Below, one piece after another: positions 5,043 through 11,857 of a DNA stretch of 12,589 nucleotides. Within the stretch, counting starts at the first letter, position 1. Each line of letters opens with the position of its first letter. Origin of the DNA: a virus; the UHGV virus genome UHGV-0247912. One strand, written 5' to 3'. The position numbers and the translations under genes are program-made. The notes under the pieces are model-generated. The model was not told where the DNA came from and did not search any database. It worked only from the letters and a program-made list of their open reading frames with translations.

Positions 5043-5060
5043 TATGTTATTTCCTCCGGT

Positions 5061-6179
5061 TTACAAAATGGAAAATTCAGGGTAATAAACAAAGCGCCCG
5101 ATCTCTCCATGATCCTGGCTGTAAATAATAACCGCCGCCAGGCGACGCGACCGCCAGCCGCCATTAGTCGAATAGGCATCCTTACCCGCTAACGTGCCGT
5201 GATACTCAACAACGCCAAGCGATGACTCGATCAGCCGTTGATGATGCCAGTGCCCGCAGTGGGCGTAAACAGCAGCAGACTTGCCGAAATCCTCGCGCCA
5301 GTCAGCTACGCAAGCAGACAATAAATTTTCTGGCTTTTTGATAGTGTGCCCGTGGTGGTAAGCAAGAAATGTTTTGCCGTACTGTGTGTGGTGGACGATA
5401 GCAGGGGACACATCAACCGTCACGCGCGGTTCATCTTCGTAAAAAGCCGCCAGCGCCGCACGTAGCCAAATCATGCCTGACTGATCGTGATTGCCTGATA
5501 ACACCTGGATTTCAACATCTTTATGATTTAACAACATCTTTCCTACCGCCCGCCGTACAGACCGGATCGCCACATAAACAAGTTTTGCGTAGCGACTATC
5601 CTGATCAAGAATATGCCCGCTTGTTGGCGTAACCGGGACCATACCATCAGAATGAAGCAGGTCACCACCGAGAAGTAAGACGGCTTTTTCAGACATCGGA
5701 GCAGCGCCAACGGCATAATCAAAGAAGTTATTTAGCACGCGTTCAGCGATCCCAGTGTCGTAGCTCTCGCCGCATTCAGCTTTATGGGCAAGCGCCCCGA
5801 TATGCAGATCAAACACAGGATAAAGGGCCAGGCTTTTTTGAAAATCAATTTCAGGCACTGGCACAGCCTCCGCGCGTGGTATTTCATCAGTGAAAGCGTC
5901 GCGGGCCGCTTCCATTAGCTGTTCCATTTCTTCGCGGTCACGGGCTGTTTTAATCCAGCGCATGATAACATTGCCGTTCTTATCCACTAGCAACGACTCA
6001 CCATTGACGCCAAAACCAGGCGCGCGGCGTGTTGATAATAAACCCCGTTTCGCCAGTTTTGCGCCCAGGCGTTCGACATTGCGTTTAGACATGCCGTACT
6101 TTTCAGCGATCTGTTTGTACGTTAATCCGTTGTTATATTCAGCGATCAATTGCTCATCACTGATTTTTCTTTGCGACAT
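5061..6179 (-). CDS. HTH domain + calcineurin-like metallophosphoesterase domain protein (372 aa)
   Basis: ATG at 6179 with GGAGGG RBS (the track start at 6203 is an alternative start codon). N-terminal HTH (LTYKQIAEKYGMSKRNVERLGAKLAKRGLL); phosphoesterase-type motifs FDLH, GGDLLHSDG, GNHD, HHGH, GHWHH. Confidence 0.7.
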   Translation of the reverse strand: MSQRKISDEQLIAEYNNGLTYKQIAEKYGMSKRNVERLGAKLAKRGLLSTRRAPGFGVNGESLLVDKNGNVIMRWIKTARDREEMEQLMEAARDAFTDEIPRAEAVPVPEIDFQKSLALYPVFDLHIGALAHKAECGESYDTGIAERVLNNFFDYAVGAAPMSEKAVLLLGGDLLHSDGMVPVTPTSGHILDQDSRYAKLVYVAIRSVRRAVGKMLLNHKDVEIQVLSGNHDQSGMIWLRAALAAFYEDEPRVTVDVSPAIVHHTQYGKTFLAYHHGHTIKKPENLLSACVADWREDFGKSAAVYAHCGHWHHQRLIESSLGVVEYHGTLAGKDAYSTNGGWRSRRLAAVIIYSQDHGEIGRFVYYPEFSIL

Positions 6180-6212
6180 AATGTTAATCCCTCCAGTTAA
6201 CAAAATGTATAC

Positions 6213-6944
6213 CTACTTACACGCAAAAAGTTCAGACACCCAAAGTTGACCCTTAGCAGTAAATAGTGATTGGACGTAACCTCCAGCCGAACATTTTACC
6301 ACTCCATAGCCTTTGTCTACGAACCACTGCTTGAACATACGCCCGCCGCGCTTAATTCTCGTATCGTACACGTCAACCTGTTCAAGTTTTTTGTTGAGTT
6401 GCGTAGCAGTCATACCCAAAGGCTTGGCAACCTGTGTAGCGTTGCGATGCTGTTCGTTTCTTACAATCGCATCACAGACAGCCGCTTTCGGTGCTAATTC
6501 CTTATTTTCCAGCGCCAGACGATCAATTTCTTTCTGTGCTAATAGTTTTTGTTCAACCTCATCAGCCCATGCGCGAGCCGCCGCCACCGGATCAGTGAAA
6601 TCCGGCAAAGCTGGCTGCCGTACCTGTTTTTCGAGTTCCTGCCAGCGATCGACAAGTCGCGCCGTAAATTCAGGGCAGTTTTGAGCAACGACAATTATAC
6701 TATCTCGCTTGCCCTGCTCGCCTTCAAAAACGTAGGCCTTATCTTTTACCTTGAATCCTAAGTTATTGATTCTTTCGAGAAACTGCAATGCAGGACGCCG
6801 GATTACACCTTTATCAGCAAGGCGTTCTATAGAAACAAGCATGTTATCGTGACGGAACTTATTAACTCCGTTCCACTTATTTAGAAAATCAACGATCTCA
6901 ATACTGTTCATCTTAACAGCATCAAACACCATTAATTCAGACAT
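6213..6944 (-). CDS. rha: Rha-family phage regulatory protein / antirepressor-like (Rha N-terminal domain + ANT/KilAC-like C-terminal domain)
   Basis: ATG at 6944 with GGAG RBS. N-terminus has SIEIVDFLNKWNGVNKFRHDNMLVSIERL (the RHDN signature of Rha); C-terminus has ATQVAKPLGMTATQLNKKLEQVDVYDTRIKRGGRMFKQWFVDKGYG. Confidence 0.7.
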   Translation of the reverse strand: MSELMVFDAVKMNSIEIVDFLNKWNGVNKFRHDNMLVSIERLADKGVIRRPALQFLERINNLGFKVKDKAYVFEGEQGKRDSIIVVAQNCPEFTARLVDRWQELEKQVRQPALPDFTDPVAAARAWADEVEQKLLAQKEIDRLALENKELAPKAAVCDAIVRNEQHRNATQVAKPLGMTATQLNKKLEQVDVYDTRIKRGGRMFKQWFVDKGYGVVKCSAGGYVQSLFTAKGQLWVSELFACK

Positions 6945-8367: not shown

Positions 8368-8625
8368 TCATCCCTCCGGCAACATCACTACATAGACATC
8401 ACTGAATGCATCAAGACGACAAACAAATCCTTTATCCATTAACGCGGCGAAGGCATCATGTACCGTATGAACAGGAAGTTCACACATTGCGGCTACTTCT
8501 TTGCGTGATGCATCATGTACCCGTCCTTTGTTATCTGCCTTTTCAGCCAGAGCCATTAAGACAAGTTTTTGAATCGGGCTATTAAGTTTTACGTTCCATG
8601 CTTTACTAATCATGTTTATACTCAT
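8368..8625 (-). CDS. small HTH / winged-helix DNA-binding protein (85 aa), first gene of the rightward-type operon (Cro/CII position)
   Basis: ATG at 8625 with AGGAG RBS (track ORF 8368..8703 starts earlier without an RBS); KLVLMALAEKADNKGRVHDASRKEVAAMCELPVHTVHDAFAALMDKGFV looks like a winged-helix DNA-binding domain. Confidence 0.55.
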   Translation of the reverse strand: MSINMISKAWNVKLNSPIQKLVLMALAEKADNKGRVHDASRKEVAAMCELPVHTVHDAFAALMDKGFVCRLDAFSDVYVVMLPEG

Positions 8626-8733
8626 CGCATTTTCTCCTATGGTTAGAGTGAACGCGCGGGCGGGCATCCCATTAGCATTAGATAGCAGTGACTGACCGCT
8701 CAACAGATCCCGCCGTTGCGTGATATTTGTTTT

Positions 8734-8767
8734 TCGCTTCGCAGCGACACCGGATTTTTAAAGAGCA
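8734..8767 (-). promoter_or_regulatory. candidate nutR-like site (boxA-like plus hairpin) in the minus-strand leader
   Basis: Minus strand reads TGCTCTTTAAAAAT (close to lambda nutR boxA CGCTCTTAAAAATT), then 6 nt, then hairpin UCGCU-GCGA-AGCGA. Confidence 0.3.
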
Positions 8768-8809
8768 TAAGGTAAGTGCCTTTTTGTGCCTTCCGTATCT
8801 TTTTCCTTG

Positions 8810-8929
8810 CGTCTTTGCAAGTATGGCCTTACCTTGTCTGCAAGTTTACAAAATGGAATTTTAAGATCAAGGCTTAAAATACACGTTTTGTGACTTGCAT
8901 CAAACTTTTTGAGGTTATAGGGTAGCGAC
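8810..8929. promoter_or_regulatory. divergent immunity control region (PR-like and PRM-like promoters, candidate operators)
   Basis: Lies between the divergent cI-type gene and the minus operon. Heptamer TGCAAGT at 8816-8822 and 8839-8845 and its complement ACTTGCA at 8893-8899. Possible minus-strand promoter TTGATG (8905-8900), 16-nt spacer, TATTTT (8881-8876). Exact operators and promoters are not resolved. Confidence 0.4.
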
Positions 8930-9577
8930 ATGAAAACAAAATGGTATGACTTAGCAAAGCAGCTCATGCGGGCGCAGGGCATGAGCCAGGATTCACTCGC
9001 GGATCGTATGGGGATAACTAAAGGCGGCCTGTCACACTGGCTGAACGGTCGCCGAGAGCCAAATCTTGAAGATATTGCGCGGATTATGCGCGAGCTTGGT
9101 CGTCGGCAGTTTACTGTTACACATGATGGCATGGTCATTGATGATTCTGTTTCTAATACACTTCAGGCCGTGCCGCCGCGTGATTTAGGTAGTTACCCGG
9201 TTATTGACTGGAAGGACACAGTAAACAATATGGATGACGCAAGGCGTTCAGCATTACGACACGTTACGACTAGCGTTATTTGTTCAGATGACAGTTACTG
9301 GCTGGTTGCCAAAGGTGAATCAATGAACGCGCCGCAGGGGTTGAGCATCCCGGCGGGGACGATGATACTTGTGGACCCGCACGCGCCAGCTATTGACGGC
9401 AAACTGGTTATAGCCCAGCTTGAGGAAGGGCAGATACCGACGTTTAAACAGTTGATTATTGATGGAGGTCAAAGGCTTTTACGTTCGCTCAATCCGCTGT
9501 ATCCGCCAATCCCTATGAATCCAGAATCAAAAATTATAGGCGTGGTGGTTGATGCGAAGATCGTAAACCTGCCATAA
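8930..9577 (+). CDS. cI: cI-type phage repressor (N-terminal HTH, C-terminal LexA/S24 autopeptidase domain)
   Basis: 215 aa; HTH GMSQDSLADRMGITKGGLSHWLNG; C-terminus GESMNAP...TFKQLIIDGGQRLLRSLNPLYPPIP parallels lambda cI ([24 protein letters not shown]) including the catalytic Ser and Lys. Confidence 0.9.
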   Translation: MKTKWYDLAKQLMRAQGMSQDSLADRMGITKGGLSHWLNGRREPNLEDIARIMRELGRRQFTVTHDGMVIDDSVSNTLQAVPPRDLGSYPVIDWKDTVNNMDDARRSALRHVTTSVICSDDSYWLVAKGESMNAPQGLSIPAGTMILVDPHAPAIDGKLVIAQLEEGQIPTFKQLIIDGGQRLLRSLNPLYPPIPMNPESKIIGVVVDAKIVNLP

Positions 9578-9607: not shown

Positions 9608-9699
9608 GCCTGGAAAACACCAAAACGTAAACAGAAAACGTTATTTATTATTTAAATATCAATGGCATATAAAATATTTTAAAAAAGTATACAAAATGG

Positions 9700-9728
9700 A
9701 TTGACTCGATGTTTTACGGGGCGTATAT
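9700..9728 (+). promoter_or_regulatory. strong sigma70-type promoter (PL-like), AT-rich upstream region
   Basis: -35 TTGACT (9700-9705), 17-nt spacer, -10 TATATT (9723-9728); very AT-rich 9640-9698 (UP-element-like). Confidence 0.5.
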
Positions 9729-9983
9729 TGCGAGTCAAAGGAAGGGCGCAGGTAACAAAAGCAACTTCCTGGCACTTTAAAAATCAGGCTTAACACCTTG
9801 TCAACCGTGGAGTAACTCCCCGATGGGGGACCGAAAGCGGCACTGATAACAAGGCGCATGGGGTGTTTAAAGCGTTACATCCCCCACGAAACCGCACGCA
9901 AGGCGACGAGTCAGCTTGCTTGGAGTGAGCAAGGTCACGCCGGGAACGGCGATGATTGCGGGATTAGTTGAAAGATGTTAAGC

Positions 9984-10021
9984 CGCTCATTAACAATCTG
10001 GTCAGCCGCTGGAAGTGCGGC
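9984..10021 (+). promoter_or_regulatory. candidate nutL site: boxA-like CGCTCATTAACAAT plus boxB-like hairpin
   Basis: CGCTCATTAACAAT (9984-9997) resembles boxA (CGCTCTTA / GCTCTTTAACAA); 7-nt spacer; hairpin GCCGC-UGGAAGU-GCGGC (10005-10021) with a purine-rich loop; sits just upstream of the N-like gene. Confidence 0.5.
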
Positions 10022-10077
10022 AATTAACGAAGATGATTTTTTATTAAGTATCATCAAGGATATACGGAGATCAGATT

Positions 10078-10368
10078 ATGAGCGTTACAATTATATATGG
10101 TAAATGTGATAGCAAAATGAATGCCAGGGAACGCAGAAGGATAAAAAGAGAAAACGAAAGAAAATCATCACCTGCAATCAATAAAACAGACAATGTGGAT
10201 AAAGCTATTCGATTTGCAAACGAGGAAAGATGCAAACCAAATAGCATTAAAGAACGTCGCAAAGGATCAGTAAAATGGTATACGGAAAATGAAAGCGGCA
10301 GCTACTACCACGCAACGCAACCACGCCATTTAGGGGAAAAACCCCTGGATAAAGTCCGCTACCATTAA
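10078..10368 (+). CDS. N: N-like transcription antitermination protein (arginine-rich motif)
   Basis: 96 aa; N-terminus MSVTIIYGKCDSKMNARERRRIKRENERK has an arginine-rich motif like lambda N (MDAQTRRRERRAEKQ) and, from memory, P22 gp24; first gene after the PL-like promoter and nut-like site; RBS GGAG 8 nt upstream. Confidence 0.7.
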   Translation: MSVTIIYGKCDSKMNARERRRIKRENERKSSPAINKTDNVDKAIRFANEERCKPNSIKERRKGSVKWYTENESGSYYHATQPRHLGEKPLDKVRYH

Positions 10369-10398
10369 TACAAAATGTAAACATCCGGAGGTGACATT

Positions 10399-11159: not shown

Positions 11160-11563
11160 TGAGTTTAAATTCAATCACGCTGGGCGGGAATATCGGTAAT
11201 GATATGGAGGTTCGCTACACACAAAACGGGAAAGCGATTGGTAGTTTTCCGTTAGCTGTAACGAATGGCTACGGCGATAATAAGCGGACAATGTGGGTCA
11301 CTTGCCTGGTATTTGGTGAGCGTGCGGAAAAATTAGCGCCACATATCCGCAAGGGTGGAAAAATAGTGGTAAGCGGTCGCCTGGATGTTCGGCAATATGA
11401 CCGGAACGACGGCACGAAGGGAACGGCGGTAGAAGTGGCGGTTAACGAATTTGAATTCATGAACGTTAACCAACAAGGCCAGCAGCAGAAAGCGCCTCCG
11501 CAGCAGCAGAATAATAACGGGAATAATCCGCCGATGGACTTTGATGACGATATCCCGTTTTGA
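11159..11563 (+). CDS. ssb: single-stranded DNA-binding protein (short phage SSB)
   Basis: 134 aa; OB-fold N-terminus (ITLGGNIGNDMEVRYTQNGKA...), Q/N/P-rich linker and acidic C-terminal tip DFDDDIPF; start overlaps the erf stop (TAATG). Confidence 0.9.
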   Translation: MSLNSITLGGNIGNDMEVRYTQNGKAIGSFPLAVTNGYGDNKRTMWVTCLVFGERAEKLAPHIRKGGKIVVSGRLDVRQYDRNDGTKGTAVEVAVNEFEFMNVNQQGQQQKAPPQQQNNNGNNPPMDFDDDIPF

Positions 11564-11578
11564 TCCAATAGGTTAGCG

Positions 11579-11857
11579 ATGGTTGATTATCTAAAACCGC
11601 CACCACCGCCACGAACAAAAGAGCAAGTATTAAAAGAAGCCCGTGATCAAATCGATCGCGGGCTTTTTTTATGCGGCACGGCAGCGGAACGGATGGCAAA
11701 AAGATTTAGTGACCTGTACGCAAAACAAATATGGTTCGACAACTGGCAGGCAAGTTTTTATCCGCTGCAAAGAAAACCGGATATGCACTGGCCTGAATAT
11801 GTCGATCCACGTATGCGCAAATATCGCGGGCGTATGGGCCAGGTCATTAACGATTAA
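11579..11857 (+). CDS. hypothetical protein (92 aa), proline tract near the N-terminus
   Basis: Continuous with the erf-ssb operon; stop 12 nt before the next gene; weak RBS. No family recognised. Confidence 0.45.
   Translation: MVDYLKPPPPPRTKEQVLKEARDQIDRGLFLCGTAAERMAKRFSDLYAKQIWFDNWQASFYPLQRKPDMHWPEYVDPRMRKYRGRMGQVIND

Follow-up and report, generated by a model that had tools for sequence, protein, structure and literature searches.

Here we report a comparative analysis of the 304-bp interval at positions 8626-8929 of the viral genome UHGV-0247912, a stretch of 12,589 nucleotides (nt) that is referred to below as the window. The interval separates a cI-like repressor gene, which begins with the ATG at 8930 on the plus strand, from the first gene of a leftward operon that encodes replication proteins. 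We consider it likely that this interval is the left control region of a temperate coliphage of the mEp021 type (the mEpimmI group), in which a divergent switch similar to the right operator (OR) region of phage lambda is combined with a long antitermination leader and in which the cro gene is missing. The evidence comes from promoter and operator positions that recur among relatives of the phage, from a match to a published nutL site, and from a sister phage that shares the switch and carries a cro gene.

The mEpimmI phages were described by Negrete-Mendez et al. 2025 (PMC11893012) and are reported to be about as frequent as lambdoid phages in human-gut E. coli isolates. In the same paper, the Rep021 repressor (gp15) of mEp021 was shown to give immunity against all six phages tested, and the Gp17 protein was described as acting on three sites, nutR1, nutR2, and nutL, the last of which lies upstream of the repressor gene. 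Terminator read-through by Gp17 with nutL, nutR1, and nutR2 in mEp021 was reported by Valencia-Toxqui et al. 2023 (Arch Virol 168:92), as cited in PMC11893012. Previous descriptions of the mEpimmI switch have been confined to the repressor protein and the nut sites. The repressor and nutL are already published, while the promoter and operator map, the leaderless repressor start, and the loss of cro that are proposed here are absent from the accessible literature: PMC11893012 contains no description of promoters, operators, a leaderless start, or the absence of cro, no cro gene is mentioned for these phages in its accessible text, and its supplements give no nut, operator, or promoter sequences. 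The present analysis supplies a testable map of both putative early promoters, their operators, and the predicted leaderless start of the repressor mRNA.

Identification of the prophage and its repressor

Over the stretch around the interval, the window is 87-92% identical to the Escherichia phages MagusPhagus, mEp515, mEp021, mEp044, mEp010, mEp013, and mEp554, and the region was found in 35 of 5,426 complete E. coli genomes, in the chromosome every time. By this homology, the window is assigned to a mEp021-like E. coli prophage of the mEpimmI group. A scan of species-representative genomes with the repressor alone returned no relatives, whereas an alignment-based scan did recover them. The comparison set consisted of 44 close and about 23 distant relatives, and 29 distinct variants were compared over the interval.

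The repressor gene (8930-9577, plus strand) encodes a protein of 215 amino acids (aa) that is homologous to Rep021 and matches the Pfam families HTH_3 (E = 1.5e-12, residues 10-57) and Peptidase_S24 (E = 5.8e-19). Its best match in PDB is the lambda cI structure 3bdn (E = 1.4e-20, residues 15-208), and by these matches we regard it as a homologue of lambda cI. An earlier note on this DNA, made from its letters alone, had called the interval a divergent immunity region, and the homology bears this out for a temperate phage whose repressor resembles cI. The protein keeps the catalytic residues, Ser within GESM and Lys within FKQL, and lacks the Ala-Gly cleavage site, as Thr-Val stands at the alignment position of lambda A111-G112. 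The missing site has been noted and linked to the failure of ultraviolet (UV) light to induce these lysogens (PMC11893012). Within residues ~93-107 (9206-9250), the close variant P0006 has Ala-Gly, and distant relatives (~44-51% identity) have the canonical SAG. In the GenBank record of mEp021, the repressor starts at an internal ATG and has 198 aa (positions 11218-11814 of the record; L001 3353-3949), a start that would delete the conserved MKTKW arm and the first helix of the helix-turn-helix (HTH) domain. The 215-aa start, which is used by the Prokaryotic Genome Annotation Pipeline (PGAP) and in the mEp515 annotation, fits both the HTH_3 match and the family alignment and on these grounds corrects the annotation of mEp021.

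The divergent interval of about 304 bp claimed by the earlier note is confirmed by the coordinates, and in a near-identical prophage annotated by RefSeq PGAP, the distance between these two genes is 305 bp. The difference of one base arises because a T near 8796 is absent from the window; it is present in 28 of the 29 distinct relatives (G-TATC versus GTTATC or CTTATC). The gene on the other side, which is the first one diverging from the repressor, encodes an 85-aa protein (8368-8625, minus strand). Its start codon at 8625-8623 follows the Shine-Dalgarno (SD) sequence AGGAGA at 8638-8633, and the same gene is annotated by PGAP.

Divergent promoters and the repressor transcript

Leftward transcription is predicted to start near 8836 from an early promoter, PL (8843-8870, minus strand), which consists of the -35 element TTGATC (8870-8865), a 16-nt spacer, and the -10 element TAAACT (8848-8843). 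Among the 29 variants, the -10 element is unchanged, the -35 element reads TTGATC, TTGACC, or TTGATT, and the spacer has a constant length and a sequence that changed at many positions, the diversity of the promoter spacer region (8851-8885) being 0.18. The same design recurs in the loci L052 (TTGAAC-16-TAAACT) and L047 (TTGATT-16-TATACT). A second leftward candidate, TTGATG-16-TATTTT (~8903-8876), was rejected, since its -10 element is not conserved and is shifted by 2 nt in variants.

The repressor gene appears to be transcribed from a promoter (8895-8923, plus strand) similar to the lambda promoter for repressor maintenance (PRM), with the -35 element TTGCAT at 8895-8900, a 17-nt spacer, and the -10 element TAGGGT at 8918-8923, from which 6 nt lead to the A of the start codon. 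Lambda PRM is arranged in the same way (TAGATT, 6 nt, and ATG). The earlier note had placed the PRM-like -10 element at TATAGG (8916-8921). This sequence is present, and a promoter just 5' of the ATG is supported; however, the hexamer is better read as TAGGGT, which is the same in all 29 variants, whereas TATAGG is replaced by GATAGG in three of them and has no T at -7.

In L052, the corresponding region reads TTGAAT-17-TAGGAT-6-ATG, with spacer and discriminator sequences that are unrelated to those of the window, and L047 likewise repeats the geometry of both promoters. Across 23 distinct family members, a hexamer of the form TAnnnT (including TATAAT, TATCAT, TATTAT, TATGAT, and TACATT) stands 6 nt before the ATG in 12 and 7 nt before it in one, against a background of 2.7% per position, and most of the remaining members have AATAAT 7 nt before the ATG. 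The binomial probability of 13 such hexamers in 23 members is ~3e-11, uncorrected for relatedness. An SD-like 4-mer between -16 and -5 was found in only one of the 23. This comparison gives good support to a leaderless repressor mRNA, which the earlier note had suggested as a possibility, as a trait of the family, and transcription probably starts with the A of the ATG or no more than 1-2 nt away from it.

Alternatively, the repressor mRNA may be leadered, with ATAGGGT providing a weak SD sequence (AGGG) and with the promoter located further upstream, for example in the region of the operators O1 and O2 described below. The AGGR contained in TAGGGT or TAGGAT (AGGG in the window, AGGA in L052) stands 7 nt from the ATG, an ideal SD distance, and could serve transcripts that start upstream; in addition, the PRM-like promoter matches only 6 of 12 consensus positions, and a promoter scan of the plus strand of the interval was empty. 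We nevertheless hold a leadered mRNA to be rather unlikely, as relatives carry -10 boxes instead of SD sequences at this position, and operator positions are fixed relative to the ATG throughout the family. The plus-strand TAAAAT at 8875-8880, a candidate for such an upstream promoter, is not conserved and was rejected. A leaderless maintenance transcript can also coexist with use of the SD sequence by read-through transcripts. For lambda, a leaderless maintenance transcript from PRM is commonly described together with an SD-using transcript from the promoter for repressor establishment (PRE).

Candidate operators

In relatives, the interval between the repressor and cro genes contains as many as three sites of 13 bp with the pattern ATACA-N3-TGTAT; they start near -82, -49, and -22 from the repressor ATG, and the outer two merge into the -10 boxes of both promoters. 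From these sites, we infer the operator core (A/T)TACA-N3-TGKAW. A weight matrix was built solely from the relatives' sites and scanned over 12,571 positions of the window. The candidate operator O1 (8846-8858; TTACAAAATGGAA), which overlaps the -10 element and the spacer of PL, was ranked second (8843-8861), and O2 (8881-8893; ACACGTTTTGTGA) was ranked fifth (8878-8896). O1 starts at -84 from the ATG, compared with -80 to -83 in relatives, and O2 starts at -49, compared with -48 to -50, so that both predicted sites, which overlap the proposed -10 and -35 elements, occupy family-conserved positions. O2 is centred at -43 from the predicted repressor start and reads ATACATTTTGTGA in 11 variants. 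The third position, O3 (8908-8920; TTTGAGGTTATAG), overlaps the repressor -10 element and is degenerate in the window (5/10), whereas relatives have a strong site there, starting at -22 to -24.

Similar sites accompany a second control region on the other side of the repressor gene, where a rightward promoter PR is predicted at 9701-9729 (plus strand; TTGACT-17-TATATT). One operator-like site (9689-9701; ATACAAAATGGAT) abuts the PR -35 element and was ranked third by the matrix (9686-9704), and a weaker one (9714-9726; TTACGGGGCGTAT) overlaps the PR -10 element, as O3 overlaps the repressor -10 element in relatives. The 16-mer AAGT(T/A)TACAAAATGGA, which corresponds to O1, is the sole long repeat common to the control regions on either side of the repressor gene. 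Nine matches to TACAAAATGG with no more than one mismatch were counted, compared with 1.3 expected.

Several observations weigh against this assignment of promoters and operators. A sigma-70 scan with a threshold of at least 9 of 12 consensus positions found no promoter within 8626-8929, PL and the repressor promoter scoring 8 and 6 of 12, respectively; therefore, the proposal is founded on comparative evidence and not on consensus strength. The operators of the window are asymmetric, with 7/10, 6-8/10, and 5/10 matches to the consensus, and the window as a whole shows no enrichment of the palindromic consensus ATACA-N3-TGTAT, so that their support comes from position and from the relatives rather than from window-wide enrichment. 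The top matrix hit of the window (10365-10383) is unexplained and lies outside both control regions. Finally, the relatives are phylogenetically non-independent, which makes the P-values optimistic.

This top hit (TTAATACAAAATGTAAACA) is located directly after the stop codon of the N-like gene, and two further high matrix hits, at 5058-5076 and 6195-6213, are located at gene junctions in the leftward operon. Conservation in mEp021 extends to at least two of these three hits, and all of them could represent extra operators, internal promoters, or chance matches. Another resemblance to the operator motif (AACAAAATGGTAT) was found within the repressor gene at 8935-8947, where the codons AAA ACA AAA TGG TAT encode KTKWY; it may follow from the conserved N-terminal arm or mark a downstream site for autoregulation. 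A CRP-like sequence, TGTGA-N6-TCAAA (8889-8904), is probably incidental, TGTGA being the conserved right half of O2 in relatives that have no TCANA partner.

Absence of cro and the nature of the 85-aa protein

Comparison of the 29 distinct relatives revealed no conserved open reading frame (ORF) within the interval, in agreement with the earlier note, which had found no credible cro ORF there. The plus-strand ORFs of 33-45 aa run across indel-rich columns, the ATG at boxA (see below) is missing from most variants, and a TTG-initiated extension of the 85-aa gene is out of register across alleles. A tblastn search with the Cro protein of L052 gave no match in the window or in positions 1-50,000 of mEp021, and Pfam revealed no other small HTH_3 gene in the window.

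The relatives present a different picture. At the enterobacterial, Vibrio, Photobacterium, and Shewanella repressor loci (L047, L055, L058-L073, L088, L115, and L121), 19 of 20 distinct divergent ORFs, with L064 as the exception, are Cro-like HTH genes of 69-79 aa, whose starts, after removal of artefactual upstream extensions, are 104-118 bp away from the repressor ATG. On the contigs L052-L054, a 75-aa HTH_3 gene is located 124 bp from the ATG of a repressor (P0008) that is 55% identical to the one studied here; the recognition helix and the N-terminal arm of the two repressors are identical, and the order of the Erf, Ssb, and DnaB genes is the same. Homology between the window and L052 starts at 8830, and the whole switch to the right of this point is shared. 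To the left of it, L052 has cro, then nutL, and the next gene ~30 nt further on, whereas the window has ~200 bp without a counterpart. The unusual length of the interval is explained by the missing cro and by a nutL leader of ~210 nt between the promoter and the first gene; judged from the predicted transcription starts, which are ~94 bp apart, the interval is a switch of normal size followed by this leader. By comparison with its relatives, the absence of cro is an unusual feature of the mEpimmI group. A Cro-like function could, however, be provided by an unrecognised small protein or RNA elsewhere, which also counts against the proposed reading. At Pseudomonas loci of the same repressor family (L074-L138), 13 of 17 repressor genes examined face a conserved non-HTH protein of ~113 aa at a distance of ~135 bp instead of a Cro-like gene.

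The earlier note had offered the 85-aa protein as the Cro of this system, that is, as a protein that would bind the repressor's operators and lower repressor synthesis. Its gene is the first in the transcript diverging from the repressor, the protein is small and is predicted to be a DNA-binding winged helix, and RefSeq labels it a MarR-family regulator. Its best matches are nevertheless the N-termini of phage replication initiators: residues 1-83 match positions 1-89 of the 223 positions of phrog_4617 ('replication initiation protein') with E = 1.8e-22, and four further initiator or O-like PHROGs are matched, whereas it has no Pfam match and hence no HTH_3. The gene lies directly upstream of a Lin1244_N/O-like replication gene, after which a DnaB gene follows. 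Homology among phages of the same immunity stops at ~8630, right at the ribosome-binding site (RBS) of the 85-aa gene, where a mosaic breakpoint is located; to five of seven phages, homology starts only at ~8631. The mEp021 allele of the protein is 34% identical and has a different putative recognition helix, compared with ~90% identity of the control sequences and near-identical operators, and the repressor's relatives employ an unrelated HTH_3 Cro. Since a Cro must read the operators of the repressor, the divergence of the 85-aa alleles within one immunity argues that the protein is not Cro, and we regard this role as very improbable. From its matches and its position, the 85-aa protein is instead the winged-helix N-terminal domain of a replication initiator that belongs to an exchangeable replication module.

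The nutL site and the conserved leader

Consensus boxA sequences of the rrn and lambda type read (T/C)GCTCTTTAACAA, and lambda-type boxB hairpins require a GNRA-type loop for recognition by N. The nut-like boxA and hairpin that the earlier note had seen in the minus-strand leader were located at 8767-8755 and 8747-8734, respectively, and match the published nutL. The boxA (8755-8767, minus strand; TGCTCTTTAAAAA) agrees with this consensus at 12 of 13 positions and lies ~70 nt downstream of the predicted PL start, and its core GCTCTTTAAAAA is invariant among all fetched mEpimmI loci that cover the stretch. The boxB hairpin (8734-8747, minus strand; UCGCU-GCGA-AGCGA) follows after 7 nt, and its natural loop variants, GCGA, GUGA, and GCAA, conform to GNRA every time. 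By its sequence and location, the boxA/boxB pair at 8734-8767 is the published nutL of mEp021. It aligns with the paralogous nutR2 of mEp021 (CGCU-GAAA-UGCG), which is located downstream of the cytosine methyltransferase gene, where PMC11893012 places nutR2, and its boxB resembles those of nutL and nutR1 of L052 (CGCU/UGCU-GAAA-AGCG/AGCA). A homologue of Gp17 is encoded in the window (phrog_271, E = 1.3e-13).

The nutR2 region of mEp021 (L050 5318-5420; record 20117-20219), which is outside the window, has the appearance of a compact paralogue of the PL-nutL module. In this region, ATGCTCTTTAAAAATCCGG and the CGCU-GAAA-UGCG hairpin directly adjoin a PL-like promoter that carries an O1-like site (CCTTGTTC...TCCATTTTGTATACTT), and the ~60-nt palindrome/hairpin segment described below is missing. 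Given this compact PL-like promoter, nutR2 may be served by its own repressor-controlled promoter, beside read-through from nutR1.

From nutL to the RBS of the first gene extends a highly conserved untranslated leader segment of 106 nt (8631-8736, minus strand). Its diversity is 0.029, compared with 0.029 and 0.025 at the first and second codon positions of the repressor gene and 0.18, or six times more, at the third; just upstream of boxA (8770-8800), diversity is 0.125. In searches of phages and E. coli genomes, the conserved leader was confined to the mEpimmI prophage group. Distant segments of the leader are predicted to form a long-range stem (GGCGGGAUC / GAU-G-CCCGCC), and CUCU is predicted to pair with the SD sequence in a small hairpin. 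The sole common paired substitution is C to U at 8646 and 8648 (RNA sense), which keeps the pairs as G.U, yet the predicted fold of the variant changes. An Rfam scan of the whole window at E <= 1 gave nothing in the interval, folding of the leader on both strands gave ordinary z-scores (-0.87 and 0.01), and RNAalifold detected no covariation among 24 distinct sequences, a result of the low variation in the region.

The most variable part of the leader contains a small hairpin with a weak consensus, AAGGT-AAGT-GCCTT (AAGGN-loop-NCCTT), followed by a run of four to five T (8769-8785, plus strand). In 15 of 15 sequence variants, this hairpin is predicted to be stabler as plus-strand RNA, owing to its G.U pairs. 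It resembles a weak terminator that faces the repressor gene, with no obvious transcript to end.

In lambda, the N-leader combines nutL with an RNase III-sensitive structure that controls translation of the first gene. We tentatively propose, with low confidence, that the 106-nt leader is a cis-acting control element that acts, like the N-leader, on translation or processing. A more far-reaching reading is that the leader (8631-8790) encodes a regulatory RNA that has assumed part of the role of Cro, either as a plus-strand antisense RNA that runs over nutL and ends at 8769-8785 or as a cis-acting N-leader-like structure that controls the replication genes. Consistent with such an RNA, 106 nt are constrained like non-synonymous sites although they contain no conserved ORF, the hairpin with its T-run is stabler on the plus strand in every variant, the predicted structures include a long-range stem and a hairpin that pairs with the SD sequence, and the leader is missing from the cro-containing sister phage L052. 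The ordinary fold z-scores, the lack of a matching Rfam family, and the failure of the scan and of manual inspection to reveal a convincing plus-strand promoter make it distinctly unlikely, and the leader shows too little sequence variation for a covariation test. Neither several plus-strand candidates for an antisense-RNA promoter nor a CII-type TTGC-N6-TTGC sequence (8716-8729) showed a credible -10/-35 pair by eye, and all of these were rejected. We consider equally doubtful, as a general model, that the mEpimmI switch works without any Cro, cro having been replaced by a non-coding RNA-level regulator of ~200 nt that, together with the non-cleavable repressor, would set the choice between lysis and lysogeny via Gp17-dependent expression of the replication operon.

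Heptamer repeats and the leader palindrome

The heptamer TGCAAGT occurs three times in the interval, at 8816-8822 (copy a, plus strand), 8839-8845 (copy b, plus strand), and 8893-8899 (copy c, minus strand), and these positions confirm the two direct copies and one inverted copy listed in the earlier note. Against 0.05 expected in 304 bp, three copies have a Poisson P of ~2e-5, and the copies are kept in 22-24 of the 29 distinct relatives. Over the whole window, the heptamer is unremarkable, with four copies compared with 2.1 expected and with 35 of 200 shuffles reaching four. Copy b overlaps the -10 and start region (+1) of PL and abuts O1, copy c holds the first five bases of the repressor -35 element and abuts O2, and these two copies, together with O1 and O2, make up an imperfect inverted repeat of 27 nt with the PL -35 element at its centre. 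Copy a overlaps the right arm of a perfect palindrome, CTTGC-GTCTTT-GCAAG (CTTGC-N6-GCAAG; 8806-8821), which would span roughly nucleotides +15 to +30 of the transcript from PL. The palindrome has conserved arms and a variable spacer, is present in one copy per genome, and is absent from L052. It may form a hairpin at the 5' end of the RNA or be bound by some protein.

Alternatively, the sequences that the repressor, or a second regulator, actually recognises may be the heptamers together with the palindrome. The three copies within 84 bp are mostly conserved, a fourth related copy (TGCGAGT, which is TGCAAGT in several variants) is found just past the PR -10 element, and the palindrome keeps its arms while its spacer varies. 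On the other hand, only one heptamer copy has a properly spaced inverted partner, and the overlap of copies b and c with promoter hexamers and the initial transcribed sequence is enough to explain their conservation. Moreover, the heptamer is absent from the operator positions of relatives within the same recognition helix family, and the palindrome occurs only once in the genome and is missing from L052, whose repressor has an identical recognition helix. A recognition role of these elements is therefore quite improbable in our judgment. The heptamers instead flank or overlap the proposed promoter and operator elements and are not the operator core.

Neighboring genes and the second control region

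To the left of the interval, the minus strand encodes the 85-aa protein, the Lin1244_N/O-like replication protein, an antirepressor-like KilAC protein, and the DnaB helicase. The repressor gene is followed on the right by a terminator, a strong promoter, nutR1, the N-like protein (phrog_271), a Kil-like peptide, Erf, and Ssb. The nutR1 boxA (9772-9783, plus strand; GCACTTTAAAAA) follows the rightward promoter. The segment between nutR1 and the N-like gene (9861-10077) is the most variable part of the region (diversity ~0.35). It contains alternative sequences among otherwise near-identical phages, and in some relatives much of it is apparently missing.

Proposed mechanism and comparison with known systems

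We propose the following scheme, in which the promoter starts, the occupancy of the operators, the activating effect of O2, and a possible function for the conserved leader are predictions from the sequence. The dimeric cI-like repressor would bind ATACA-N3-TGTAT operators within 8836-8929. Bound at O1 (8846-8858) on the PL -10 element, it would shut off the replication operon, and bound at O2, centred at -43, it would activate its own promoter, as lambda cI does at OR2 on PRM. Activation from O2 is a reasonable expectation because both the -35 and the -10 element of the repressor promoter are weak. The site O3, which covers the repressor -10 element in relatives, would have decayed in the window, and the repressor would be made from the leaderless mRNA described above. 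Transcripts from PL would bear the leader of ~210 nt (8835-8626), with the 5' palindrome or hairpin, the variable hairpin, and the nutL boxA and boxB. At nutL, the N-like Gp17 would cause terminator read-through, as published for mEp021, and the 106-nt conserved segment would then lead to the RBS of the first gene, which encodes the replication-initiator N-terminal domain. The combination of no cro, a non-cleavable repressor, and no UV induction raises the question of how a lambda-like switch commits to lytic growth, and the strong conservation of the leader raises the question of its role.

The closest known systems include mEp021 and the mEpimmI group, with which the window shares the repressor, the positions of nutL and nutR1, the Gp17 homologue, and the order of the Erf, Ssb, DnaB, and Lin1244 genes. 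The loci that encode P0008 (L052-L054) and the enterobacterial, Vibrio, Photobacterium, and Shewanella loci share the repressor family (35-55% identity), the three-operator plan, the geometry from the -10 element to the ATG, and a PL-type promoter; L052 also shares the boxA/boxB nut sites in addition to its Erf/Ssb/DnaB order. These relatives differ from the window in that all but L064 have a Cro-like HTH_3 gene 104-124 bp from the repressor ATG and in that none of them has the 8626-8829 segment.

The topology of the region is the same as in lambda, where cI is followed by PL-nutL-N in one direction and the replication operon is divergent, except for the contents of the interval. In both phages, operators lie between divergent promoters, the middle operator is near -43, and the -10 element of the repressor promoter stands 6 nt before the ATG. 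Both use boxA/boxB nut sites that are read by an N-like protein containing an arginine-rich motif, and the series of repressor, terminator, second promoter, nut, and N-like gene in one direction corresponds to cI-rex-PL-nutL-N. Unlike lambda, the window has neither cro nor cII, and its nut site precedes the first gene of the replication operon rather than following cro. Its operators are 13-bp sites that are ~35 and 27 bp apart, whereas those of lambda are 17-mers 23-24 bp apart. The O3 site is degenerate, and the repressor has no Ala-Gly cleavage site, the lysogens being reported as not UV-inducible (PMC11893012). By this comparison, the interval would work like the lambda OR/PRM/PR switch joined to an N-leader, and it departs from lambda in two defining features of the CI/Cro system, the cro gene and the Ala-Gly cleavage site.

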